Shown here piece after piece: positions 16,344-36,900 of a stretch of 64,000 nucleotides of DNA (the stretch's first letter is position 1; each line of letters starts with the position of its first letter). The position numbers and the translations under genes are program-made. Origin of the DNA: Escherichia coli (GTDB lineage Bacteria > Pseudomonadota > Gammaproteobacteria > Enterobacterales > Enterobacteriaceae); NCBI RefSeq assembly GCF_013122565.1, contig NZ_CP053258.1; one strand, given 5' to 3'. A model generated the notes under the pieces. The model did not search any database. It saw only the letters and a list, made by a program, of their open reading frames with translations, and was not told where the DNA came from.

Positions 16344-19193
<2,850 letters not shown>

Positions 19194-19197
19194 ACAC

Positions 19198-19326
19198 TGC
19201 CGGATGCGGCGCGAGCGCCTTATCCGGCCTACAGGTCGGCAACAGTTGTAGGCCTGATAAGACGCGACAGCGTCGCATCAGGCATTGATTGCCGGATGCG
19301 GCACGAGTGCCTTATCCGGCCTACAG
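19198..19326. repeat. REP/BIME cluster (three REP palindromes)
   Basis: three copies of gccggatgcggcgcgagcgccttatccggcctacag-type palindromes between rhaA and rhaD. Confidence 0.85.
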
Positions 19327-19367
19327 GTCGTGCATCTGACAACACCGAATTTACAGGAACACAGAAC

Positions 19368-20192
19368 ATGCAAAACATTACCCAGTCCTGGTTTGTCCAG
19401 GAAATGATCAAAGCCACCACCGATGCCTGGCTGAAAGGCTGGGACGAACGCAACGGCGGCAACCTGACGCTGCGCCTGGATGACGCCGATATCGCACCAT
19501 ATCACGACAATTTCCACCCACAACCGCGCTATATCCCGCTCAGCCAGCCCATGCCTTTACTGGCAAATACACCGTTTATTGTCACCGGCTCCGGCAAATT
19601 CTTCCGTAACGTCCAGCTTGATCCTGCAGCTAACTTAGGCGTCGTAAAAGTCGACAGCGACGGCGCGGGCTACCATATTCTCTGGGGGTTAACCAACGAA
19701 GCCGTTCCCACTTCTGAACTTCCGGCTCACTTTCTCTCCCACTGCGAGCGCATTAAAGCCACCAACGGTAAAGATCGGGTGATCATGCACTGCCATGCCA
19801 CCAACCTGATCGCCCTCACCTATGTACTGGAAAACGACACCGCGGTCTTCACTCGCCAACTGTGGGAAGGCAGCACCGAGTGTCTGGTAGTGTTCCCGGA
19901 TGGCGTTGGCATTCTGCCGTGGATGGTACCCGGCACGGACGAAATCGGCCAGGCGACCGCACAAGAAATGCAAAAACATTCGCTGGTGTTGTGGCCCTTC
20001 CACGGTGTGTTCGGTTCCGGACCGACACTGGATGAAGCCTTTGGTTTGATAGATACCGCAGAAAAATCAGCACAAGTATTAGTGAAGGTTTATTCGATGG
20101 GCGGCATGAAACAGACTATCAGCCGTGAAGAGTTGATAGCGCTCGGCCAGCGTTTCGGCGTTACACCACTCGCCAGTGCGCTGGCGCTGTAA
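19368..20192 (+). CDS. rhaD: rhamnulose-1-phosphate aldolase
   Basis: 274 aa from ATG 19368 ([21 protein letters not shown]...); the ORF-track extension upstream runs through the REP cluster. Confidence 0.95.
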
Positions 20193-20201
20193 GGAGCAAA
20201 C

Positions 20202-20516
20202 ATGATCCGCAAAGCCTTTGTCATGCAGGTAAACCCAGACGCCCACGAAGAGTATCAGCGTCGGCATAATCCCATCTGGCCGGAACTGGAAGCAGTGCTG
20301 AAATCTCACGGTGCGCATAACTACGCCATCTATCTCGACAAAGCGCGTAATCTGCTGTTTGCCATGGTAGAGATTGAATCTGAAGAACGCTGGAATGCGG
20401 TTGCCAGTACTGATGTTTGCCAACGTTGGTGGAAATATATGACCGATGTTATGCCAGCTAATGCGGATAACAGCCCGGTGAGTAGCGAGCTGCAAGAAGT
20501 GTTTTACCTGCCTTAA
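20202..20516 (+). CDS. rhaM: L-rhamnose mutarotase
   Basis: 104-aa [31 protein letters not shown]... Confidence 0.93.
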
Positions 20517-20522
20517 TGAGTA

Positions 20523-20549
20523 GCGGTGCCGGAAAATATCCAGCACCGC
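20523..20549. terminator. bidirectional hairpin between convergent rhaM and porin gene
   Basis: 7-bp stem gcggtgc/gcaccgc with a 13-nt loop. Confidence 0.5.
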
Positions 20550-20556
20550 GCCTTCA

Positions 20557-21951
20557 TCAGAAGAAGTATTTAAAGCGAACGCGTGCGCCGTAACGGTCAT
20601 CAGTATCATCACCGTGTTTTTTATCACCGTCGCTATCCAGAATTGAGTAATACGTCCCAAGGTAAATATTAAAGTTCTCCATATCCATCACATTAGCGAA
20701 CTGATATGACGCATGAATGGTGTGAATGGTGTACGTCCCTTCATCATCAATCCAGCAGTCGTTATCACAAACTACACCGCTGAATTCATCAATCTTATTG
20801 TGCGCGTAGATATAACCGAGCTCGAAACGTTTCCACAGCGCGTTAATCCCGGCAGTGAAATCTTTCTCATTATTAGCATCTAAATAGGCGGTATTAAGAT
20901 TAACCACAATGCCATTGTCCGGATCCGTTTTCAGGCCATTCCAGGTCATACTCATACCATAGCCGGTACGATCGGACTGATCGACAAAGTTACCCTTACT
21001 ATCGGTATAACCGTAAGCATTATTTACCACGTTCGCTTCCATCGCTGCGGAAACGGTGAATTCTTCCGTCGGCGACCAGGCAATTACCGGACGCAGATAA
21101 GCAACATTTTTCTGCTGCTCCATATCGCGTCCATGATAATTACCGTCATTATATAAAGATGTTCCGTCTTCAAGTAACGTGTTTAATTCAAAATACCAGT
21201 TATCGAGTTGTTTGCTGACGAGGAAATTACCGCCAGCGTTAGAACGCCCGCGGCCCTCTTTCATCATATAGATATAACCGCTGCCATCATCATAAAGATC
21301 GTTCGCAGTATTGCCGGAATGTTCAACAAAGGTATCCTGATTCAGCGGGAACATATCGTAGGCTTCAAAACGGCCTACTTTGACCTTCCAGTCGTTTTCT
21401 TTGCCAAAGAAGAATACCGCATCATCGATATTTACTGAACCGTGCATATCCCCCAGCGGTTGTGCGGAGAACCCGGCGAAATAACCATTATCCAGTTTTC
21501 GCATACCATCAAAACCTAACAGAATACGACCATTGAGATTCCACTGTTCATTAGTGGGATCGCTATTCACATCAGCGTTGGTCATTGCCAGCAGGCCATG
21601 ATTACTTTCCGCATCCATATTAAATTCTACGTCGCCGTAGATTTTTAAATCGCCATAACCTGAAAGCAAAAGATTAGGTGAGGTGGCATTTTTCTTTGCA
21701 GATTCCGCCGTTGTCTGTCCATTTACCGGCATATTGCCCTGGGCAGCCTTAATTTCGCGGATCTCAGCGGCTTGTTGTGTCTGCAGCTGTTTTACCTGCC
21801 CCTCTGCTTTTGCTGCCCGCATTTCTGCCGCTTCCAGGCGTTCTTCCAGCAATGCCATGCGTTGTTCCAGCGTTAAATGCTGTGTTTTTGCCATACCGGT
21901 ACTACATGCCAATAATAAACCGATGGCTAAAGATAATGTCGATTTTTTCAT
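20557..21951 (-). CDS. carbohydrate-selective outer-membrane porin (OprB-like) with N-terminal coiled-coil
   Basis: 464-aa ORF: signal peptide MKKSTLSLAIGLLLACSTGMA, an about 50-aa coiled-coil (LEQRMALLEERLEAAEMRAAKAEGQVKQLQ), then a beta-rich domain ending in C-terminal F (…RFKYFF); I do not recall a K-12 gene at this position (rhaM and frvA are adjacent there). Confidence 0.75.
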   Translation of the reverse strand: MKKSTLSLAIGLLLACSTGMAKTQHLTLEQRMALLEERLEAAEMRAAKAEGQVKQLQTQQAAEIREIKAAQGNMPVNGQTTAESAKKNATSPNLLLSGYGDLKIYGDVEFNMDAESNHGLLAMTNADVNSDPTNEQWNLNGRILLGFDGMRKLDNGYFAGFSAQPLGDMHGSVNIDDAVFFFGKENDWKVKVGRFEAYDMFPLNQDTFVEHSGNTANDLYDDGSGYIYMMKEGRGRSNAGGNFLVSKQLDNWYFELNTLLEDGTSLYNDGNYHGRDMEQQKNVAYLRPVIAWSPTEEFTVSAAMEANVVNNAYGYTDSKGNFVDQSDRTGYGMSMTWNGLKTDPDNGIVVNLNTAYLDANNEKDFTAGINALWKRFELGYIYAHNKIDEFSGVVCDNDCWIDDEGTYTIHTIHASYQFANVMDMENFNIYLGTYYSILDSDGDKKHGDDTDDRYGARVRFKYFF

Positions 21952-22428
21952 TATTTACGTTCCCTGAAATAAAGGAGACCCTACGCTTTCCAAAAGGAAT
22001 ACGTATATAGAGAAATATAAGGTGTGCACTTTCGAATTTTTAATCCAACTTCAGCAGGCCGATGGATAGTATCCCGCCGCATAATATGAGTAAATCCGCT
22101 GATTTCCTGGAACGTGAGGAATATAACAATAGTGCCGTTTTTAACTAAATATCGTAAAAAATATTAGATATGATTCACGCTGACTCATAAGCCACAAATA
22201 TAAATAACGTTTAGACAAATTATCTGAGACATTTAAACATTCACAAAATCATTAAATAATAACTCTTTATTCACAAGATTTATTTTACCTACTAATATGT
22301 GCCTTACGCCGCAAAATTTATCCTTCACTCTGCTTTATATTGTCACGACTTCACGACATATCCGCGCTCATCACAAACACGCCTCGCTATTACAATTAAC
22401 TGAAATATTTTTTCATGGAGTCCGATTT

Positions 22429-22875
22429 ATGGCAGCTCTTACTGCAAGCTGTATTGACCTGAATATTCAGGGCAATGGCGCTTATTCCGTTCTGAAGCAG
22501 TTGGCGACAATAGCGTTACAAAACGGTTTTATCACCGACTCACACCAGTTCCTGCAAATTCTGCTGCTGCGCGAAAAAATGCACTCCACCGGTTTTGGTT
22601 CCGGCATCGCCGTGCCGCACGGTAAAAGCGCCTGCGTTAAACAACCGTTCGTGTTATTCGCCCGCAAAGCGCAGGCCATTGACTGGAAAGCCAGCGACGG
22701 CGAAGACGTCAATTGCTGGATCTGCCTCGGCGTGCCGCAAAGCGGCGAAGAGGATCAGGTCAAAATCATCGGCACACTGTGTCGCAAAATTATTCACAAG
22801 GAATTTATTCATCAACTGCAACAGGGCGATACCGACCAGGTGCTTGCCTTGTTAAATCAAACCCTCAGCTCATAA
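22429..22875 (+). CDS. frvA: PTS fructose-like EIIA component
   Basis: 148 aa from ATG 22429 (MAALTASCIDLNIQGNGAY...). Confidence 0.88.
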   Translation: MAALTASCIDLNIQGNGAYSVLKQLATIALQNGFITDSHQFLQILLLREKMHSTGFGSGIAVPHGKSACVKQPFVLFARKAQAIDWKASDGEDVNCWICLGVPQSGEEDQVKIIGTLCRKIIHKEFIHQLQQGDTDQVLALLNQTLSS

Positions 22876-22885
22876 GGAAGTGGCG

Positions 22886-24337
22886 ATGGAGTCATCCTTA
22901 CGTATTGTCGCGATCACCAACTGCCCCGCCGGGATCGCTCACACCTACATGGTGGCGGAAGCCCTGGAACAGAAAGCCCGTTCTCTCGGCCATACCATAA
23001 AAGTGGAAACTCAAGGGTCCAGTGGCGTTGAAAACCGCTTATCCAGCGAAGAGATTGCCGCTGCCGATTACGTGATTCTCGCCACCGGGCGTGGCCTGAG
23101 CGGTGACGATCGCGCGCGGTTTGCCGGGAAAAAGGTTTATGAGATTGCCATCTCCCAGGCGCTGAAAAATATCGATCAGATTTTCAGCGAATTACCAACA
23201 AACTCGCAGCTTTTTGCCGCAGATAGCGGCGTGAAGCTAGGCAAACAGGAAGTACAAAGCGGCAGCGTGATGAGCCACCTGATGGCGGGCGTCTCTGCGG
23301 CGCTGCCGTTTGTCATCGGCGGTGGTATCCTGGTGGCGCTTGCCAACATGCTGGTGCAGTTCGGTTTGCCATATACCGATATGTCGAAAGGCGCGCCGTC
23401 GTTTACCTGGGTAGTTGAATCCATCGGTTACCTTGGCTTCACCTTTATGATCCCCATCATGGGCGCTTATATTGCCTCGTCGATTGCCGATAAACCGGCT
23501 TTCGCTCCGGCGTTTCTGGTTTGCTATCTGGCGAACGACAAAGCGCTGCTCGGCACCCAGTCGGGTGCGGGATTCCTCGGCGCGGTGGTGCTGGGGCTGG
23601 CGATTGGCTATTTCGTCTTCTGGTTCCGCAAAGTGCGCCTTGGCAAAGCATTACAACCTCTGCTCGGTTCAATGCTTATCCCGTTCGTTACTCTGCTGGT
23701 TTTTGGCGTACTGACTTACTACGTTATCGGACCGGTGATGTCCGATATTATGGGCGGGCTGCTGCACTTCCTGAATACCATTCCTCCATCAATGAAGTTT
23801 GCGGCGGCGTTTCTGGTTGGTGCGATGCTGGCGTTCGATATGGGCGGCCCCATCAATAAAACTGCCTGGTTCTTCTGCTTCTCACTGCTGGAAAAACACA
23901 TTTATGACTGGTATGCCATCGTCGGCGTTGTCGCGCTGATGCCGCCCGTCGCGGCGGGTCTTGCAACGTTCATTGCGCCCAAACTGTTTACCCGACAGGA
24001 AAAAGAGGCTGCCAGTAGTGCCATTGTGGTCGGTGCCACAGTCGCAACCGAACCGGCTATTCCTTACGCTCTGGCAGCTCCGTTGCCGATGATTACCGCC
24101 AATACGCTGGCGGGCGGTATTACCGGCGTGCTGGTGATCGCTTTCGGAATCAAACGTCTGGCGCCGGGTTTGGGTATCTTTGACCCGCTGATCGGCCTGA
24201 TGTCACCGGTGGGTTCGTTTTATCTGGTGCTGGCGATTGGCCTTGCGCTAAACATTTCATTCATTATCGTCCTGAAAGGATTGTGGTTACGCCGCAAAGC
24301 GAAAGCCGCGCAACAGGAGCTTGTCCATGAACATTGA
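22886..24337 (+). CDS. frvB: PTS fructose-like EIIBC component
   Basis: 483 aa from ATG 22886 (RBS aaggaag 5 nt upstream); N-terminal IIB domain (ITNCPAGIAHTYM) plus polytopic IIC. Confidence 0.9.
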   Translation: MESSLRIVAITNCPAGIAHTYMVAEALEQKARSLGHTIKVETQGSSGVENRLSSEEIAAADYVILATGRGLSGDDRARFAGKKVYEIAISQALKNIDQIFSELPTNSQLFAADSGVKLGKQEVQSGSVMSHLMAGVSAALPFVIGGGILVALANMLVQFGLPYTDMSKGAPSFTWVVESIGYLGFTFMIPIMGAYIASSIADKPAFAPAFLVCYLANDKALLGTQSGAGFLGAVVLGLAIGYFVFWFRKVRLGKALQPLLGSMLIPFVTLLVFGVLTYYVIGPVMSDIMGGLLHFLNTIPPSMKFAAAFLVGAMLAFDMGGPINKTAWFFCFSLLEKHIYDWYAIVGVVALMPPVAAGLATFIAPKLFTRQEKEAASSAIVVGATVATEPAIPYALAAPLPMITANTLAGGITGVLVIAFGIKRLAPGLGIFDPLIGLMSPVGSFYLVLAIGLALNISFIIVLKGLWLRRKAKAAQQELVHEH

Positions 24338-27194: not shown

Positions 27195-28250
27195 TTAACG
27201 CAGGCTATTATAGTCATCAACCATTTCGTTGTACTCGCGTAACGCGCGTGGAAATGAGTCTTCGACCATCCAGCTTGTGTTTGCATCCTGAAGATGCTCT
27301 TTATCCCAGTCAGAGTACGGGACTTTATCTCTGACGCGGCGAACATATTTTTTAGTCTCGAGTTGATACTGGTCTGCCGAATTAATGAACGAGAAATTCA
27401 TACCGCCTTTATCCGCTTCTTTGGCCTGCGCTACCAGCGTTTCCAGTTCAGAGACTTTCTTCATTGCCGCATCAACATCAAACTTCTCTTGCGATATCAG
27501 GTTATTAATTTGTTTCGCTGAAATCATGACTGCCAGAGAGTAGTAGTGGAATGTTTTCCCTTCTCTTTCTTCAATATTTTTCAGTTCCGCAAGCTGACGC
27601 TTATCGTTAATTTCCTGAATCGCCGCATGATAAGATTCTGCTACAGGTTCAAAGGCTTCCAGATTTTTTAAGAATGTCTGGTGCAGCGTTTTCCCTTTCG
27701 CAAACGCATCGTCTTTATAATTTTCCTGGGTGTAATATTTATCCATTTCGTTAATGGTATTACCCAACGCCACGGCAGCATCGATATAACTCACCGCCAC
27801 GCCATCAATTGGTTGCAGCGCAGGCGTTAACGCCACGACTCTTTTTATTCCTTTTTGACACTCAGAGAGATTGGATTCACTAATGCCGTAAATGCCATAA
27901 ACAAGGCTCTCTCTACCCGTTGGCCCCTGTTTAAAATCTTTCAGCCAGTCAGCGTAACGCGCCAGACTGTTCTGTACAGGAATCTGTAACTTGTTGTAGC
28001 ACTTGATATAGACATCCATTTTTTCGTCGAAAACCGCTTGTTCATCGACCACCGGTTGCGCAGGCGTTTCAGGTTTAACTTCTGCTTTTGCAACGGGAGC
28101 TTCAGTAGGTTTCGCTTCAGGAGCTGGTGCGGCAGGTTGACTATTGGCAGGCGGGGGCGTTTCTGTTTCGGCTTTTTTATCATCACAACCCGTGAGACCG
28201 AGGGACATGATGGCGACTATAATAGCGGAAGATAATAAATTCCTTTTCAT
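27195..28250 (-). CDS. yiiG: DUF3829 lipoprotein YiiG
   Basis: 351-aa ORF with lipobox (…SLGLTGC) and a low-complexity PAxP-rich linker. Confidence 0.85.
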   Translation of the reverse strand: MKRNLLSSAIIVAIMSLGLTGCDDKKAETETPPPANSQPAAPAPEAKPTEAPVAKAEVKPETPAQPVVDEQAVFDEKMDVYIKCYNKLQIPVQNSLARYADWLKDFKQGPTGRESLVYGIYGISESNLSECQKGIKRVVALTPALQPIDGVAVSYIDAAVALGNTINEMDKYYTQENYKDDAFAKGKTLHQTFLKNLEAFEPVAESYHAAIQEINDKRQLAELKNIEEREGKTFHYYSLAVMISAKQINNLISQEKFDVDAAMKKVSELETLVAQAKEADKGGMNFSFINSADQYQLETKKYVRRVRDKVPYSDWDKEHLQDANTSWMVEDSFPRALREYNEMVDDYNSLR

Positions 28251-28444: not shown

Positions 28445-30751
28445 CTACATTCCATAACGTTCAGAAATAGCAGCATGTTTCTCTTCATTCGCCCCGGCTT
28501 CTTTGGCAAGACGCCACCAGCACAACGGATGTTCCCAGTCAGCGGTCAATTCGTGCAAGGTCTTATCGATATCACCTTTAGAAACTGAACGCGGCGCACT
28601 GATAACAAAGTAGAATGCGGGAAGTGGCTGCGCATCTTCACCCTGATGACTGTCCGTTAACGTATAGTCGTCATTACTGTTGCTCCAGTAGTACCAGTTT
28701 CGTTCGCGGAGCGCCTCACGGAAGGCATTAAACTGTTCTTCACCAGGCATGACACCTTCGCAGAACCAGGACTCGCCGTATTCGGTCGGAATAATGGTTT
28801 GCAGGCAGGCATAAAGTGGCGTGAAATTCTTCTGCTCTTCCTCATCCTCTGGTCGGGAGTTCAACATTTCTGCATCGAATACCACAACTTCATCAACATG
28901 TTGCGGATAATCGGTCCGGTAAGTTGGCTCAATGATCCTTGCTGTTACCGGCCCAATACGTTGAGCATAGTAATAGCGGTATTCATAATTTTCCCGGAAG
29001 CGGATGTTTAACAACCCCCATTTTTCGTCAATAAAACCTTCGCCTTCCGTGAGTTCGATTTCCAGTTCAGCAGCAATAGCACGAACCAAATCCCATTGTT
29101 GCAGGATGCTGGCGGTCGCCATGATATCCCACTGGAGATTTCGAATATCTTCTTCACGGCTAATCATCAGTTGCTGCAATTGCTGTAAATAATCCAGTTG
29201 TCGATCCCAGGCTTCCTGTTTTTGTGCTGCCCAGGAGCACATGCGATAAACGCCAACCCACTCACGCCCTTTTTCGTGTTGCAGCAACTGTTGCCCAATC
29301 GACTCCAGTTCACTCCAGTCTTCCTGTTGGTTGATCACTCGCGCGCGGAACCACAAGGCCATATGTAGCAGCCCCGCCTGTTCATACTGCTTCGCCAGAT
29401 GCTCGATAGTTTGCAAATCGTCACGGTGGAGCAAGAGATCCAACAGATCGAAGCAAAGTCCATTATCTTCCTGAAGATGGCTTTCAACGTAGCGTTGCAG
29501 GAGTTCAATCGATTCATCAATCGCATTGCAGGCGTTTAACGCATTGACCAGCTTGCCCAGCAATTCCGCATCATCAGGCGTGTTCAGATAAGCGCGGCGG
29601 AATGTTTCTACGTCTTTTTCTGGATCTGGCTGCGTTTCTTCATCGCTATTTTCAGGTACTTCTACAACCGGACGAGCCAGCAACTCTGCTTCTTTGGCGG
29701 CTATTTTTTCACTCAGTTCGAGAAATTCGCGATCGACGCCCAGTAACGCGCGTAATTTTGGCATGTGTCGCTGGGCCAGTTTCATCGCTATTTTGGCAAC
29801 CCAGACGGATTCACGCTCCAGCGCCAGGGTAATTTGCAGTTTCGCCAGATCAACCACTTTGCGGTGCGCCCCGGCCTGTGAACGTTGCTCCAGCATTTTC
29901 TGGATGATGCGCGCCAGTTGCCAGTTGTTTCTTTGTGGATGACGGGGAAGTAACACAGTAATGATTTTCAGCCATGACCCCCATGAATGCGGAGTCAGAT
30001 CGGACCAACGCGGTAATTCCTCCCAGACTTCTTCGTCCTGCCCGCATAACGCCATGATGTACAGTTTTTTTAGGTGATTACTAATGCGGTCGCGGCCCCA
30101 GTAATCATTGCTTTCTGTCAGCTCATCAATCAGTTTGCGTGCTTCATCATAACGCTGAAGTTCAATCAGAATATCGGCGCGAGTATAAAGTAATGGATCA
30201 AAATCATCTTCCCCGGCGGCTTTAACCGCGTCGATTTGCCGATCCAGATAAGCCAGTGCCTCCTCTGTTCTTTTGGAATCTATCAGTGCACTGGCATATT
30301 CAGTGGACAAACACTGAAAACAGCTCCAGGTTGCATCAATGCGCGCGATGGTTTCTTCACACACCGCCATGCGTTCATTCGCCCAGCCAGGTGCATCAAT
30401 ATTTTCGTAGCAGGCGGATAAATCCTGGGTAACGCAGATAGATTGCGGGCAATCTTTCGCCTCTTCCCGGTGCGCTTTTTCAAACAGCGCCACCACGTCT
30501 GGCAGTACTTTTTCGCCTTCTTCGCGGTTAGTGAGACGATGGCGCATTTCCCAGTGACCAATAAAAATCTCCAGCCACGGATTTTTTGCCACCTGGGTAA
30601 GCGCTTTTACTTCAGGTAATAGCGAATCGCACTTTTCCATTTGCAGGTGCATAACGCCTTCCGAATAATCATCGATAAGTTGCGGAATATACTCCTGCCC
30701 GGCATCGCGCAACTCCTTAGTATATTTATGGTACCAATCCCATATATCCAT
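28445..30751 (-). CDS. hypothetical 768-aa helical/acidic protein, translationally coupled to upstream Hsp90-like gene
   Basis: ORF MDIWDWYHKYTKELRDAGQEY...; RBS AAGGAAA 6 nt upstream of the ATG, embedded in the end of the upstream gene; 1-nt gap from its stop; no catalytic motif recognised. Confidence 0.8.
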   Translation of the reverse strand: MDIWDWYHKYTKELRDAGQEYIPQLIDDYSEGVMHLQMEKCDSLLPEVKALTQVAKNPWLEIFIGHWEMRHRLTNREEGEKVLPDVVALFEKAHREEAKDCPQSICVTQDLSACYENIDAPGWANERMAVCEETIARIDATWSCFQCLSTEYASALIDSKRTEEALAYLDRQIDAVKAAGEDDFDPLLYTRADILIELQRYDEARKLIDELTESNDYWGRDRISNHLKKLYIMALCGQDEEVWEELPRWSDLTPHSWGSWLKIITVLLPRHPQRNNWQLARIIQKMLEQRSQAGAHRKVVDLAKLQITLALERESVWVAKIAMKLAQRHMPKLRALLGVDREFLELSEKIAAKEAELLARPVVEVPENSDEETQPDPEKDVETFRRAYLNTPDDAELLGKLVNALNACNAIDESIELLQRYVESHLQEDNGLCFDLLDLLLHRDDLQTIEHLAKQYEQAGLLHMALWFRARVINQQEDWSELESIGQQLLQHEKGREWVGVYRMCSWAAQKQEAWDRQLDYLQQLQQLMISREEDIRNLQWDIMATASILQQWDLVRAIAAELEIELTEGEGFIDEKWGLLNIRFRENYEYRYYYAQRIGPVTARIIEPTYRTDYPQHVDEVVVFDAEMLNSRPEDEEEQKNFTPLYACLQTIIPTEYGESWFCEGVMPGEEQFNAFREALRERNWYYWSNSNDDYTLTDSHQGEDAQPLPAFYFVISAPRSVSKGDIDKTLHELTADWEHPLCWWRLAKEAGANEEKHAAISERYGM

Positions 30752-30752
30752 T

Positions 30753-32588
30753 TTATTTTCCTTGATTAATTAAAACGGGAATAACCTGAGTAAAATCTTC
30801 CAGTGCCTGGTGTAAATCCCACTGCTGTTCTTTATTGCCGCTGGAGCACAAAATCACTTTCAGCGATTTTAATAACCGTAATGCTGCCGCTGGCTGTTGA
30901 TGGTGTTGTAAGGCAGTCACCAGTTGCATGACACAGGGGTTATTAAGATTGATATACAGACTTGAGGTTTTCGTTTTTTGGATTTGCGAGGTAAATTGCC
31001 GCGCCAGCATTAACGCTGCGGTACTGATGCGTTTATCTGCGTCATCCTGTTCGAGAATTTGTTTTAATTCTGCTTCCCGGTCTGGCGTGACCACTAACGG
31101 CAAAACGGCGGGTTCGAAGCGGGAGATAATTAATTGCTCGCCATCGCAAAGATGCTCTTCCAGATAAGCCACTTGCTCTTCGGGTAATTCCGCCAGGCTG
31201 AACAATTGCTCATTGCCCGTTTGCGTACCGACTTCGATAATCCGGCAATGATATAACAGCGCCCAACGGCGTAAAAATGGCACCACCGCATAGCGATCGC
31301 CACGGGCTACAGGCCGTTGCAGAATATGGAACAACATCTCTTCAAAACCGCCGTCGCGGCTTAACAGAATATGAATGCTGTTATTAACGCGTAAATCCTT
31401 CGCCAACAGTGCGCCTTTTGACGTTGGCACCTGTAAGCGATCTTTGAGCAAATCAAACAGACGGTCATCACACAATGCCGCGCCCAGCAACGCTTCGTTG
31501 TGGCGCATTAATACACGCCGCCAGATTTCTGGCTGATTTTGTGCGAGATCGGACAAACCAGAAATCAGCGCCTCTTTTAACGCCTCCTGCACCGCAACCC
31601 AGGTTTCATCCCGCTGGAGATCTTCCCTGCTCGCCGTCGGCGTCAGTTTCGATGACTCAATCACGCCACCAATAAATCCGGCCCAGGGCGGTAACAACTC
31701 ACGCGCTTCGTCATCCAGTAACATACCGCGCAAAAACAACGACAGGTTGCGGTTATCGCTGGTGCCGTAGGTTGCGCCATCCTGAATCCATAAAATCCCG
31801 ACCGCGTCGCTCATCCCCGCTGGCACCACCGGAATGGTGCAAATCGGTTCGAAGGAGGATTCAAACTGTGCGGCAAAGGCGAGATTTTTACGCTGCACCA
31901 GCGCGCGGTGCATGGTCACGCCTTCGGGGGCAACTTCACGCCACGGTGGTTGAAGTTTATTTACCGGCTCGCTGGCATCGCCGACATAAACCGGTTCGTG
32001 CAGCAATATGCAGTAGCGGGAAAGAACGCGGTTCAGCAAATTATTACTTGCCAGATGGCTGTACTCTTCTTTGAGCGTCAGAATCACCTGCGTACCCGTT
32101 TCCGAGGACTGATGCGGCGTAACGGTATATTTTTGCCCGTCAGTAGAGTGGTATTTCCAGCTCTGATCCGGCGTTTGCCAGGATGTGGTCAACACCGTGA
32201 CCTCTTTTGCAAGTACAAATGCTGACAAGAAACCAAGGCCGAACATACCAATTAAACCGGTGTTGTCATCCTGCTGGCGCAACATTCGGGTATAACCCAC
32301 GCCCACTGTTGCCAGGAAGCCGTGAATTTCGCTTTCTGTCAAACCCGCACCGGTATCGGTAATGGTGATGGTGGACTTCGCCACGTCTGCCACTACACGA
32401 ATTTGGTTATCCTTTGGCGCATCGGGCTGCTCAATCCTGCGGCGCACGATCGCATCGTGTCCGTTCTGCACCAGCTCGCGCACGGCGACCACGGGCGTAG
32501 AGTAAAGGTGCTTACTGAGCACCTCAATTAAGCCGTTTAAATTAACTTCAGTAGAATATGAACTGCCAGGTAACTGTAATGTACTCAT
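30753..32588 (-). CDS. Hsp90-family (HtpG-like) GHKL ATPase paralog
   Basis: 611-aa ORF with Bergerat-fold motifs (…VRELVQNGHDA… ; …ITDTGAGLT… ; …GMFGLGFLSAF…) mirroring the HtpG N-domain ELISNASDA / DNGIGM / GQFGVGFYSAF; too divergent to be htpG itself. Confidence 0.75.
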   Translation of the reverse strand: MSTLQLPGSSYSTEVNLNGLIEVLSKHLYSTPVVAVRELVQNGHDAIVRRRIEQPDAPKDNQIRVVADVAKSTITITDTGAGLTESEIHGFLATVGVGYTRMLRQQDDNTGLIGMFGLGFLSAFVLAKEVTVLTTSWQTPDQSWKYHSTDGQKYTVTPHQSSETGTQVILTLKEEYSHLASNNLLNRVLSRYCILLHEPVYVGDASEPVNKLQPPWREVAPEGVTMHRALVQRKNLAFAAQFESSFEPICTIPVVPAGMSDAVGILWIQDGATYGTSDNRNLSLFLRGMLLDDEARELLPPWAGFIGGVIESSKLTPTASREDLQRDETWVAVQEALKEALISGLSDLAQNQPEIWRRVLMRHNEALLGAALCDDRLFDLLKDRLQVPTSKGALLAKDLRVNNSIHILLSRDGGFEEMLFHILQRPVARGDRYAVVPFLRRWALLYHCRIIEVGTQTGNEQLFSLAELPEEQVAYLEEHLCDGEQLIISRFEPAVLPLVVTPDREAELKQILEQDDADKRISTAALMLARQFTSQIQKTKTSSLYINLNNPCVMQLVTALQHHQQPAAALRLLKSLKVILCSSGNKEQQWDLHQALEDFTQVIPVLINQGK

Positions 32589-32866
32589 TTTTCAATACTC
32601 ATAATCCATCACCCACTATTGAAAATACATTGCTGTTTTTACAACCGGTGCAAGGTTTGTTATTTGCATTCACTCATCAGAAACATTTATTTATTGATGC
32701 GATGATTAAAACAAAATGTCTTATATAAATAATGATTAATTCTTAAAGGATTAATGCGACCGGAGTATATCGATATAAACCGGAATTAACGAGATAATTT
32801 ATTGTGGTGAAAATATTATTTAAATGCTGAATAATATATTGAGGATTATTTAATAGAAAAATAAAA

Positions 32867-32891
32867 CCGCAATCCAGAATCAGAATTGCGG
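32867..32891 (-). terminator. hairpin downstream of fdhD
   Basis: stem ccgcaat/attgcgg with an 11-nt loop, flanked by T-rich sequence on both strands. Confidence 0.5.
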
Positions 32892-32898
32892 TATTTAT

Positions 32899-33735
32899 TT
32901 AATTATGAATCAAACGCTGCGGATGCGTATAAACCGTCGCCCGACCCGGTTTACAAAAGCCCACCAGCGTCAGATTACAGCGCTCGGCCACTTCCACGGC
33001 AAGTGTGGTCGCGGCAGACACCGCAAACAAAATCTCTACGCCACACATCGCCGACTTTTGCACCATTTCATAACTGGCACGGCTGGAAACCAGTACCGCA
33101 CCTTGCTGCCAGCTTTCCCCTTCTTGTGACCGGCGGCCTAACAGTTTGTCCAGCGCCACATGACGCCCCACGTCTTCATGCCCGCCGACCAGTTCGCCAG
33201 ATGGCAACATCCATGCAGCGGCGTGAGTACAACCAGTCAGTTGCCCCACTGGCTGGAAATCGTTGAGATGACGTAATGCATCATCCAGTTTGTTGAGATC
33301 AAACGTCTGGGTGAACGGTAGCGGCTGCACCGGTTTTCCGATGTCATTAAGTTGCTCCACGCCGCATACACCACAGCCCGTACGTCCCGCCAGCGCCCGG
33401 CGGCGCTCCTTCAACCCCATAAAGCGGCGGCTGGAAAGCTCAATTTGTACTTCAAGACCATTACAGGAAGGAACGACATCCATGCCGAAGATATCGCGCG
33501 GGCTTTCTATAATCCCCTCGGAAAGCGAAAAACCGAGCGCAAAGTACTCAAGGTCTTTGGGCGACGCCATCATCACCACATGCGAAATGCCGTTGTAGAC
33601 CAGCGCAACGGGAACTTCTTCCGCCACCTCATCTAACCGTGGGTGTTGTAAATCATCACGTCGCCATAACACAATTTGACGAACACCTGTGACATTTGTC
33701 ACATTTTCGATTTCTTTTTGCTGTGTTTTTTTCAC
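32899..33735 (-). CDS. fdhD: formate dehydrogenase sulfurtransferase/accessory protein FdhD
   Basis: 278-aa [23 protein letters not shown]... Confidence 0.95.
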
Positions 33736-33928
33736 TTTCTATTAACCGGATAAGAACACACACACCAACATTATGGTATTCTGTTACAAACCCTTCCTGG
33801 ATGGAGGGAAATTGAGCCAATTCTGGACCTTTGCGGCCCCTTCCGCAAAGAAAAATAACTCCCACTCCCTGCACACGCAGCAAGCGAATGTAAATGGGAC
33901 GTGACAATGTCGAAACAAGGAGCAATCC

Positions 33929-36900
33929 ATGCAGGTCAGCAGAAGGCAGTTCTTTAAGATCTGCGCTGGCGGTATGGCAGGCACCACGGCAGCGGCACTG
34001 GGTTTTGCACCCAGCGTAGCACTCGCGGAAACCCGGCAGTATAAACTGCTGCGCACCCGCGAAACCCGTAATACCTGCACCTATTGTTCCGTAGGCTGTG
34101 GGCTGTTGATGTACAGCCTCGGTGACGGAGCAAAAAACGCCAAAGCATCTATCTTCCATATCGAAGGCGATCCGGATCACCCGGTCAACCGCGGTGCACT
34201 TTGTCCGAAAGGCGCTGGCCTGGTGGATTTCATCCACTCCGAAAGCCGTCTGAAGTTTCCGGAATACCGTGCGCCAGGTTCTGATAAATGGCAGCAAATC
34301 AGTTGGGAAGAGGCGTTTGATCGCATCGCCAAACTGATGAAAGAAGACCGCGATGCTAACTACATTGCGCAAAACGCCGAAGGCGTGACTGTTAACCGCT
34401 GGCTCTCTACCGGGATGCTGTGTGCTTCCGCATCGAGTAACGAAACCGGCTATTTAACGCAAAAATTCTCCCGCGCGCTGGGTATGCTCGCGGTCGACAA
34501 CCAGGCGCGTGTCTGACACGGACCAACGGTAGCAAGTCTTGCTCCAACATTTGGTCGCGGTGCGATGACCAACCACTGGGTCGACATCAAGAACGCCAAC
34601 CTCGTCGTGGTGATGGGCGGTAATGCCGCTGAAGCTCACCCGGTCGGGTTCCGCTGGGCGATGGAAGCCAAAATTCACAACGGCGCGAAGCTGATTGTGA
34701 TCGATCCTCGCTTTACGCGTACGGCGGCGGTAGCTGACTACTATGCCCCTATTCGTTCCGGTACTGACATTGCTTTCCTGTCAGGCGTATTGCTGTACCT
34801 GCTGAACAATGAAAAATTCAACCGCGAATACACCGAAGCCTATACCAACGCCAGCCTGATCGTGCGTGAGGATTACGGCTTTGAAGATGGCCTGTTCACC
34901 GGCTATGACGCGGAAAAACGCAAGTACGATAAATCCTCCTGGACTTACGAACTGGACGAAAACGGCTTCGCCAAACGCGATACCACGCTGCAACATCCGC
35001 GCTGCGTGTGGAACTTGCTGAAACAGCACGTTTCCCGCTACACGCCAGATGTGGTTGAAAACATCTGTGGTACGCCAAAAGACGCGTTCCTGAAAGTCTG
35101 CGAATACATCGCAGAAACCAGTGCTCACGATAAAACTGCCTCGTTCCTGTATGCCCTCGGCTGGACGCAACACTCCGTTGGTGCGCAAAACATTCGTACG
35201 ATGGCGATGATCCAGCTGCTGCTCGGCAATATGGGGATGGCAGGCGGCGGCGTTAACGCCCTGCGCGGTCACTCCAATATTCAGGGGCTGACGGACCTGG
35301 GGCTGCTGTCGCAGAGCCTGCCAGGTTACATGACGCTGCCAAGCGAGAAGCAGACCGATCTGCAAACCTACCTTACCGCCAACACGCCAAAACCGCTGCT
35401 GGAAGGCCAGGTAAACTACTGGGGCAACTACCCGAAATTCTTCGTCTCTATGATGAAGGCCTTCTTTGGTGATAAAGCGACGGCGGAAAATAGCTGGGGC
35501 TTTGACTGGTTGCCGAAGTGGGATAAAGGCTACGACGTCCTGCAATACTTCGAGATGATGAAAGAAGGCAAGGTCAATGGCTATATCTGCCAGGGCTTTA
35601 ACCCTGTTGCCTCATTCCCGAACAAAAACAAAGTGATCGGTTGTCTGTCGAAACTGAAGTTCCTCGTCACTATCGACCCGCTGAACACTGAAACCTCTAA
35701 CTTCTGGCAGAACCACGGTGAGCTGAACGAAGTTGACTCGTCGAAGATCCAGACCGAAGTGTTCCGTCTGCCATCGACCTGCTTCGCGGAAGAGAACGGT
35801 TCAATCGTTAACTCAGGTCGCTGGTTGCAGTGGCACTGGAAAGGTGCGGACGCCCCGGGGATTGCGCTGACTGACGGCGAGATCCTCTCCGGTATCTTCC
35901 TGCGCTTGCGCAAGATGTATGCCGAACAGGGTGGCGCAAACCCGGATCAGGTGCTGAACATGACCTGGAACTACGCCATTCCGCATGAGCCGAAGTCGGA
36001 AGAAGTGGCGATGGAGAGCAACGGTAAGGCGCTGGCCGATATTACCGATCCGGCAACCGGTGCGGTTATCGTCAAGAAAGGTCAACAACTTAGCTCGTTC
36101 GCCCAACTGCGCGATGACGGTACAACTTCCTGTGGTTGCTGGATTTTCGCCGGTAGCTGGACGCCGGAAGGCAACCAGATGGCACGCCGTGATAACGCCG
36201 ATCCGTCTGGCCTCGGTAACACGCTGGGCTGGGCATGGGCATGGCCGCTTAACCGCCGCATTCTGTATAACCGCGCCTCCGCAGATCCGCAGGGTAACCC
36301 GTGGGATCCGAAGCGTCAGTTGCTGAAATGGGACGGCACTAAGTGGACCGGCTGGGATATTCCGGACTACAGCGCAGCGCCTCCGGGTAGCGGCGTCGGG
36401 CCGTTTATCATGCAGCAGGAAGGCATGGGGCGTCTGTTTGCCCTCGATAAGATGGCGGAAGGTCCGTTCCCGGAACACTACGAGCCGTTTGAAACGCCGC
36501 TGGGAACTAACCCGCTGCATCCAAACGTTATCTCGAACCCGGCTGCACGTATCTTTAAAGACGACGCCGAAGCATTGGGTAAAGCCGATAAGTTCCCGTA
36601 TGTCGGAACCACCTATCGTCTGACCGAGCACTTCCACTACTGGACCAAACACGCGCTGTTGAACGCGATTTTGCAGCCAGAGCAGTTTGTGGAAATCGGT
36701 GAGTCGCTGGCGAATAAACTTGGCATTGCCCAGGGCGATACCGTGAAAGTCTCCTCCAACCGTGGCTATATCAAAGCCAAAGCGGTGGTGACCAAACGTA
36801 TTCGCACGCTGAAAGCGAACGGCAAAGATATCGATACCATCGGTATTCCGATTCACTGGGGCTATGAAGGCGTTGCGAAAAAAGGCTTTATTGCCAATAC

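Follow-up and report, generated by a model that had tools for sequence, protein, structure and literature searches.

The stretch of Escherichia coli DNA considered here (contig NZ_CP053258.1 of assembly GCF_013122565.1; "the window", 64,000 nucleotides in its full length) contains, between the rhamnose gene rhaM and the phosphotransferase system (PTS) operon frvABXR, a gene for a 464-residue outer membrane protein of the RafY family. We consider it probable that this gene encodes a chromosomal RafY-family glycoporin which forms a wide channel, is expressed from a promoter of its own and is independent of frv. The evidence comprises a full-length match to the family model, close likeness to the RafY porin of a raffinose plasmid, orthologues at the same place beside rhaM in other genera, the separate inheritance of porin and frv among complete E. 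coli genomes, and a conserved promoter-like element that accompanies the porin.

The gene, its family (described in 1997–98), its annotation and a chromosomal copy in O157:H7 are already known. RefSeq, through the Prokaryotic Genome Annotation Pipeline (PGAP), labels it "carbohydrate porin" in thousands of genomes, and a comparative study of O157:H7 named the rafY homologue rafY2 in strains without rafRABD (PMC4809568). What is new is modest and concerns the locus history, with a porin that is ancestral at this site and deleted in K-12, the independence from frv, and a conserved CRP-like promoter module (CRP, cyclic AMP receptor protein). An earlier note on this DNA, made from the letters alone, had described a 464-residue reading frame with signal peptide, coiled coil, beta-barrel and aromatic C-terminus and had taken it for an accessory outer membrane porin of carbohydrate type divergent from frvA. 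The reading frame and these features are real, as judged from the list of open reading frames, the AlphaFold2 model and the sequence, and that general description is upheld; its more specific proposals fared differently, as set out below.

Family assignment and protein architecture

In a Pfam scan at E ≤ 10, the protein matched PF16966 (Porin_8/RafY) with an E-value of 6.3e-154 and 512.9 bits, against a cut-off of 25, the match extending over residues 104–464 and over all positions of the model (1–372 of 372). This full-length match above the curated cut-off places the protein in the RafY family (PF16966/TC 1.B.15), and the 16-strand barrel, the signal peptide and the C-terminal aromatic residue that go with the family are all present in the AlphaFold2 model or the sequence. 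The entry 1.B.15 of TCDB likewise gives 16 strands. The OprB-type label of the earlier note, for which a search with hidden Markov models (HMMs) had been proposed as a check, did not withstand that search, since PF16966 covers the whole barrel and the scan gave no match to PF04966 (OprB); the OprB family was thus ruled out. That the protein could nonetheless be an OprB-family carbohydrate-selective porin is hardly conceivable, given that PF04966 remains unmatched at so permissive an E-value and that a profile built from 49 family members finds no PDB sequence, OprB included. The notion of OprB as the closest solved fold was not borne out either, and, to our knowledge, OprB carries no coiled-coil extension of this kind.

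The LamB/ScrY group is not supported either, with no match to the HMM of PF02264 and a barrel of 16 rather than 18 strands. A PDB sequence search with the single protein gave just chance matches to dehydroquinase (E about 0.7–0.9), and the 49-member family profile found no chain there; the RafY family is without a solved relative detectable by sequence. An NCBIfam scan returned no family. The gene and the parts of its product are as follows:

20557..21951, minus strand: coding sequence of the RafY-family glycoporin, 464 aa, ATG start, stop codon at 20557–20559 (open reading frame list and PF16966)
21886..21951, minus strand: signal peptide, residues 1–22 (MKKSTLSLAIGLLLACSTGMA, followed by K; sequence features and conservation among orthologues)
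21742..21870, minus strand: periplasmic coiled-coil helix, residues 28–70, Sugarporin_N-like, with the motif T-L-E-Q-R-x-x-x-L-E-x-R-L-x-x-A-E (AlphaFold2, heptads, PF11471)
21661..21741, minus strand: low-complexity linker, residues 71–97, variable in the alignment (predicted local distance difference test, pLDDT, below 50)
20560..21651, minus strand: 16-strand beta-barrel, residues 101–464 (AlphaFold2 model)

The N-terminus resembles a signal peptide, with MKK followed by a hydrophobic core and TGMA ahead of a lysine; the pLDDT is low at residues 17–22. Across orthologues, the small-x-A motif (G-x-A) ahead of K23 is kept, and signal peptidase I would be expected to cut after Ala22. A lipoprotein, as could be read from "LLAC" at Cys16, was considered and rejected; it is unlikely because Cys16 varies among orthologues while the small-x-A motif before the lysine is conserved, so that the sequence appears as a chance lipobox look-alike.

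The model of the monomer, computed by AlphaFold2 with 49 homologues as input, has a mean pLDDT of 81.6. Its helix at residues 28–70 reaches a pLDDT of about 85–88, and in the best heptad register 11 of 13 a/d positions are hydrophobic, compared with 4–6 of 13 in the other six registers. The coiled coil of the earlier note is therefore present, with a length of about 43 residues by helix and heptad register in place of the roughly 50 proposed. The window protein itself matches PF11471 (Sugarporin_N) at an E-value of 0.031, with 15 bits against a cut-off of 25.7; among 20 aligned homologues, 17 match this model at E ≤ 0.01, the best at 4e-7, and E29, R31, L35, E36, R38, L39, E43, R45, A49 and E50 are invariant throughout the alignment. 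Because of these homologue matches and the invariant motif residues, the helix is probably the same module as the N-terminal extension of ScrY-type porins. The barrel features a long, highly conserved inward loop at residues 195–240 (FPLNQDTF...GYIYMMKEGRGRS), a conserved Cys395/Cys399 pair and a C-terminus ending in RFKYFF. ScrY and DcaP are trimers with a periplasmic coiled coil, and by analogy the window protein probably forms a trimer as well.

Among characterised systems, RafY of plasmid pRSD2 is closest: 359 of 464 residues are identical (77.4%, about 85% in the barrel) in a gap-free alignment of two proteins of 464 residues each, which share the same build of signal peptide, coiled coil, linker and barrel, the same conserved loop and the same Cys pair. 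Divergence between the two is seen in the signal peptide and in the distal half of the coiled coil. Compared over genera, the plasmid gene (locus L001, 8003–9397) shows this 77.4% identity to the E. coli chromosomal porin versus at most 70% to any other genus. On the plasmid, the porin is the last gene of an operon of a LacI-type regulator, an alpha-galactosidase, a permease of the major facilitator superfamily (MFS) and a hydrolase of glycoside hydrolase family 32 (GH32), i.e., rafR-rafA-rafB-rafD, an arrangement also present on the chromosome of a chicken isolate; the window copy, in contrast, is chromosomal and lies beside rhaM, and the plasmid spacer between rafD and rafY is without the conserved CRP-like promoter of the window gene. 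Synonymous divergence (dS) between the two genes is about 0.94, too high for the window gene to be a recent copy of that on the plasmid. A small neighbour-joining tree, drawn without bootstrap, places plasmid RafY on a long branch as sister to the chromosomal porin of E. coli, which suggests that the porin of the raf plasmid was acquired from this chromosomal lineage.

RafY is reported to be a pore of the general diffusion type instead of a specific porin, with a large conductance that sugars do not block; passage of raffinose, sucrose and maltodextrins through a large pore is known for the plasmid protein. Work of Ulmke et al. from 1997 is also said to have found that RafY complements lamB and scrY mutants. 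With ScrY, the window protein probably shares the periplasmic coiled coil of Pfam type PF11471, and its role in oligosaccharide entry would overlap with that of ScrY and LamB (both PF02264). GlyP of Klebsiella pneumoniae, the porin of an operon of glyR (LacI type), permease, hydrolase and porin, belongs to the same Pfam family; it is described with a larger pore than OmpK35/36, and upon derepression GlyP alone restores the fitness of OmpK35/36 mutants (preprint 10.64898/2026.03.29.715108). GlyP-type porins are, however, paralogues of about 55–62% identity, which are co-transcribed with permease and hydrolase genes and governed by a LacI-type repressor, whereas the window gene is a solitary one without a repressor gene beside it. 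DcaP of Acinetobacter baumannii, OprP, Omp32 and VhChiP are 16-strand trimeric porins, too, but have just 8–14% identity to the window protein and other substrates (dicarboxylates, phosphate, chitosugars).

Locus history across genera

In the window, rhaM runs towards the porin gene and ends at 20516, 40 bp from the porin stop codon, while frvA starts at 22429 on the opposite strand, leaving a gap of 477 bp (21952–22428). The G+C content is 34% in this gap and 45% in the porin gene, compared with 52–55% in the rha and frv genes and 50% in the whole window. Two further features bear on the history of the locus:

20518..22240: segment of 1,723 bp, comprising the porin gene and 289 bp upstream of it, missing in K-12-type strains (blastn against K-12 ER3413)
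20523..20549: G+C-rich hairpin between the rhaM and porin stop codons, 10-bp stem, 7-nt loop, no U tract

Orthologues with 70–85% identity were found at the same place, convergent with rhaM, in at least about ten other genera. The hosts listed are Citrobacter, C. rodentium, Kluyvera, Klebsiella, Pseudocitrobacter, Trabulsiella, Superficieibacter, Enterobacter sp. ENT03 and one Enterobacteriaceae isolate; the scan of related loci was built on 20 closer sequences, and the matches listed include no other Escherichia species. The constant neighbour of the porin across these genera is rhaM, with frv in some of the orthologous loci only. Upstream of the porin, most genera carry a regulator gene of the HTH_3/cupin type together with azlCD. 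In Klebsiella sp. B345 and K. oxytoca, rafR-rafA-rafB lies directly upstream, and in Superficieibacter within 4–5 kb; in Kluyvera genomosp. 1, RIT691 and one Citrobacter, frvRXBA is parted from the porin by azlCD and the regulator gene.

In place of 20518–22240, K-12 has 111 bp of unrelated sequence (locus L003, 3369–3479), in which a hairpin and T-run of its own follow rhaM. Neither the window nor any of the fetched loci contains a match to these 111 bp, so that K-12 shows a replacement and not a clean deletion. Since orthologues hold the same rhaM-convergent place in other genera, the porin is ancestral here and was lost in K-12; the earlier description of a gene inserted between rhaM and frvA has the direction of the event reversed. 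The porin is the stable element of the otherwise variable fdhD-to-rhaM region of Enterobacteriaceae.

Given this constant neighbour, it may be asked whether the porin serves the rhamnose system, for example in the entry of rhamnose-containing oligosaccharides. The convergent arrangement with rhaM in nearly all orthologous loci examined, in at least about ten genera, is in line with such a role. The two genes, however, run towards each other with a strong hairpin between them and are thus not co-transcribed; in Pseudocitrobacter, a Citrobacter and RIT691, genes for a GntR regulator, a PTS EIIC component and a glycoside hydrolase of family 4 (GH4), or about 8 kb of other DNA, intervene; K-12 uses rhamnose without the porin; and no site of the RhaS/RhaR type was found, although no search aimed at one was made. 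We regard a rhamnose-related role as very unlikely. Folded as RNA, the hairpin reaches −28.2 kcal/mol (z −5.8) when read from the porin strand, and the rhaM strand gives −21.4 kcal/mol (z −4.8). It was not called in a scan for consensus terminators over 20400–22600, and it is probably a bidirectional transcript end or a transcript stabiliser.

A link to an oligosaccharide operon is a usual feature of the RafY family, seen for relatives with raf, GH32, GH130 and GH38 genes, but no strict requirement; in E. coli, there is no co-oriented catabolic gene beside the porin. Among distant family members, genes for an MFS permease, a GH32 hydrolase and the porin stand together in at least eight loci, in a layout matching the glyR/GlyP operon, and Buttiauxella combines an ATP-binding cassette (ABC) transporter, GH13, GH130 and the porin. 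In Enterobacter sp. BIGb0383 (L053, 2278–12142), an operon comprises genes for a DeoR regulator, IIA, IIB and IIC components of a fructose-family PTS, a GH38 alpha-mannosidase-like hydrolase, an HTH_11/PRD/EIIA_2 regulator of FrvR-like build, a RafY-family porin without coiled coil, and a ROK kinase. Judged from its gene content, this is a putative PTS-based glycoside system with its own RafY-type porin, and marker matches suggest that Cedecea (L057) carries a similar layout.

Upstream region and predicted promoter

When the regions upstream of the porin are aligned across genera, hardly anything but one block and the ribosome-binding region is conserved. The features of the intergenic region are the following:

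22113..22128, minus strand: CRP-like site TGTTATATTCCTCACG, agreeing with 8 of 10 bases of TGTGA-N6-TCACA, within the conserved block TGTTAT.T..CTCACG
22066..22094, minus strand: predicted sigma-70 promoter, −35 TTTACT at 22089–22094, 17-nt spacer, −10 TACTAT at 22066–22071
21952..22059, minus strand: 5' untranslated region of about 108 nt, from the promoter prediction, with the conserved ribosome-binding region TTTATTTCAGGGAA
22241..22428, plus strand: frvA-proximal part of the gap, 188 bp, retained in K-12 (blastn, about 71% identical) and belonging to frv

Of 15 aligned upstream regions, 14 have kept the CRP-like block, irrespective of which gene lies upstream. In its strict form, the site pattern occurs once in the 64-kb window, compared with 0.02 occurrences expected, and once in each of 17 fetched orthologue loci, always on the porin strand and upstream of the porin; it is absent from the paralogue loci and the plasmid that were fetched. 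The spacing is conserved as well: the site is followed after 18 nt by a TTTAC-type hexamer and after a further 17 nt (16 in a few sequences) by a TA-rich hexamer, with the distance between site and −35 hexamer free of length changes in about 14 of 18 sequences. Downstream, the block TTTATTTCA(A/G)GGAA is conserved across genera. Transcription is predicted to start near 22059. The centre of the site would then be at −61.5, because the −10 hexamer is set at −12 to −7. Position −61.5 is the class I position of CRP, known from lac P1, and class I activation of the porin by cAMP-CRP is predicted.

The earlier note had assumed a 477-bp AT-rich divergent promoter region shared by porin and frv. The gap, its length and its AT-richness are correct; the sharing is not, as the gap consists of two separate modules of 289 and 188 bp. 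The 289-bp module (21952–22240) travels with the porin, contains the conserved promoter and is absent from K-12, and nothing similar to the 188-bp part was seen ahead of the porin in other genera. The corresponding 188 bp before frvA in K-12 (L003, 3480–3667) have about 71% identity, whereas the coding DNA at the flanks appears much closer (about 96% on the rhaM side). Two frv promoter haplotypes track the presence or absence of the porin, and strains of the ST131 type (sequence type 131) additionally have a 35-bp deletion here. An Rfam scan of 19000–24000 found no RNA element within the porin-frvA gap. The sole matches of that scan are to naRNA4 (RF02564), in a pair of the repetitive extragenic palindrome (REP) type at 19141–19321 in the gap between rhaA and rhaD; they fall on both strands, and one of the two exceeds the gathering score (74.4 bits).

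Several points weigh against the interpretation as a wide-channel porin under CRP control with a life independent of frv. The CRP-like site has just 8 of 10 core bases, and the −35 and −10 hexamers agree in four of six positions each. This −35/−10 pair is not among the sites of a generic promoter and terminator scan of 20400–22600, which gave 6 sites compared with 5.4 expected from shuffled sequence. A different regulator could bind the CRP-like element, and, given the 34% G+C content of the upstream region, silencing by H-NS under laboratory conditions is possible. With regard to the protein, its own PF11471 score lies under the Pfam cut-off (E 0.031), and the genome counts used below carry no correction for phylogeny.

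Distribution, relation to frv and proposed role

The population search covered 5,426 complete E. coli genomes, at a coverage of at least 80% and with counts that ignore kinship. The porin gene was found in 2,557 genomes, the porin-frvA junction in 1,378 and frvA-frvB in 4,191, from which it is derived that porin and frv are combined in 1,378 genomes, while about 1,179 carry the porin but no adjacent frv, about 2,813 carry frv but no porin, and about 56 lack the two altogether. By these counts, the porin is commoner where frv is absent, being present in about 33% of frv-positive as opposed to about 95% of frv-negative genomes.

Three arrangements account for these combinations in the strains compared. 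The order rhaM-porin-frvABXR is found in the window, O157 Xuzhou21 and BLR(DE3), rhaM-frvABXR is that of K-12, and ST131-type strains have rhaM and porin followed by fdhD, with frv deleted and yiiG truncated. The ST131-type deletion of frvABXR begins at 22411, leaving the porin and its upstream region intact, and a ratio of nonsynonymous to synonymous substitution rates (dN/dS) of 0.07 between the window and ST131 alleles indicates purifying selection on the porin. The locus is also prone to events involving insertion sequences (IS). In HS30-1 (L071, 2501–3290), IS1 removed most of the porin gene, frvABXR and yiiG, leaving a 75-bp porin remnant beside rhaM, and in EC05 the porin gene is split by the IS5-family element ISKpn26. 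For the porin/frv stretch of the window itself (20150–24337), the best match among the 5,426 genomes is 98.0–99.0%, compared with 99.5% for 30000–36000; this part of the window is a haplotype or mosaic without a close representative among the complete genomes.

The central proposal of the earlier note, that the porin is the uptake partner of the frv PTS, was to be checked by presence and absence across strains, and here the counts speak against it: the two are inherited separately (1,378, 1,179 and 2,813 genomes for both, porin only and frv only), and co-inheritance of the porin with frvABXR is not observed. In its full form, this explanation holds that the porin is a dedicated outer membrane entry for the substrate of the FrvAB PTS, co-regulated from a shared divergent region. 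In its favour, frvA is directly divergent from the porin not only in E. coli but also in Trabulsiella (L021) and Enterobacter sp. ENT03 (L019), and frvRXBA lies in the same region and relative orientation in Kluyvera genomosp. 1, RIT691 and a Citrobacter. The fructose-family PTS/GH38 operon of Enterobacter BIGb0383, with its FrvR-like regulator, provides a precedent and is the sole point for linking a PTS to a RafY-type porin. Yet, the porin persists with no adjacent frv in about 1,179 genomes, as does frv with no porin in about 2,813, and ST131-type strains have dropped frvABXR but kept the porin, on which purifying selection acts. In several genera, frvA is parted by azlCD and a regulator gene from the porin, whose promoter module is conserved with or without frv. 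Furthermore, with about 300 bp between it and the start codon of frvA, the CRP-like site is too distant for an frv promoter, and the closest relatives of the porin elsewhere are attached to raffinose genes. A literature search for an frv-porin link or for rafY2 found no paper joining the two, just the O157:H7 comparative-genomics paper. A dedicated frv partner is, thus, unlikely, and the position beside frvA is a matter of synteny.

The link of relatives to raffinose genes raises another explanation, namely that the porin is the silent leftover of a former chromosomal rafR-rafA-rafB-porin cluster and functionless in E. coli. The raf genes directly upstream in Klebsiella sp. B345 and K. oxytoca, and within 4–5 kb in Superficieibacter, are in accordance with this, as are the want of co-oriented catabolic genes at this site in E. 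coli and the repeated losses, i.e., in K-12-type strains, by the IS1 deletion in HS30-1 and by the IS5-family insertion in EC05. Moreover, in one study of 45 rafY-carrying isolates, rafABD was present in 23 only (PMC12987596). A relic is at odds, however, with a gene that is intact in about 2,550 genomes at a dN/dS of 0.07, and with a promoter element conserved in at least about ten genera, most of them without raf genes at the locus. The porin and its promoter are also wider spread than rafRAB here, so that an insertion of raf genes is at least as likely as their loss. We therefore judge a functionless leftover to be improbable.

For the independent chromosomal glycoporin that we favour, the following course can be envisaged. 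The protein would be exported by means of its cleavable signal peptide and inserted by the beta-barrel assembly machinery (BAM) as a 16-strand barrel with the inward loop 195–240, probably as a trimer fastened at the periplasmic side by the coiled coil. By its 77% identity to RafY, it would offer a wide diffusion channel of low specificity to di- and oligosaccharides (the raffinose family, sucrose, maltodextrins), which would then be imported by whichever inner membrane systems the cell has. As an orphan gene with a promoter of its own that is predicted to be activated by CRP, the porin would be made once preferred sugars are exhausted. Such predicted catabolite control agrees with the induction of a Salmonella homologue on lactulose versus glucose (PMC13304739).

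We would give little credence to two further readings. In the first, strains with both would use porin and frv PTS jointly for a bulky glycoside or oligosaccharide with poor passage through OmpF/OmpC, in the manner of the PTS/GH38 operon of Enterobacter BIGb0383; if this were true, the comparison of porin-positive and porin-negative frv strains on oligosaccharide panels would be a route to the frv substrate. In the second, the wide CRP-type orphan porin would be a "hunger" channel whose presence (ST131, O157, B strains) or absence (K-12) alters outer membrane permeability to large solutes including antibiotics, as with GlyP in Klebsiella.

With the separate inheritance of the two systems, a tempting lead to the frv substrate is removed as unsupported. 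K-12 is without a wide-channel glycoporin that is carried by about half of complete E. coli genomes, including B strains, O157 and ST131, and its presence could matter for the scavenging of gut oligosaccharides and for outer membrane permeability. The conserved CRP-like module, in turn, leads to a simple prediction of when the porin is expressed.

Apart from the porin locus, the window carries a two-gene accessory cassette at 28445–32588 (minus strand), between yiiG/DUF3829 (27195–28250) and fdhD (32899–33735). It encodes a 611-residue GHKL/HSP90-like ATPase (HATPase_c_3, HSP90; with a weak PADLOC match to TmtA, E 5e-6) and a 768-residue tetratricopeptide repeat (TPR) protein, and may be a conflict or defence cassette. 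The segment 30000–36000 is fully covered in 254 of the 5,426 complete E. coli genomes only.

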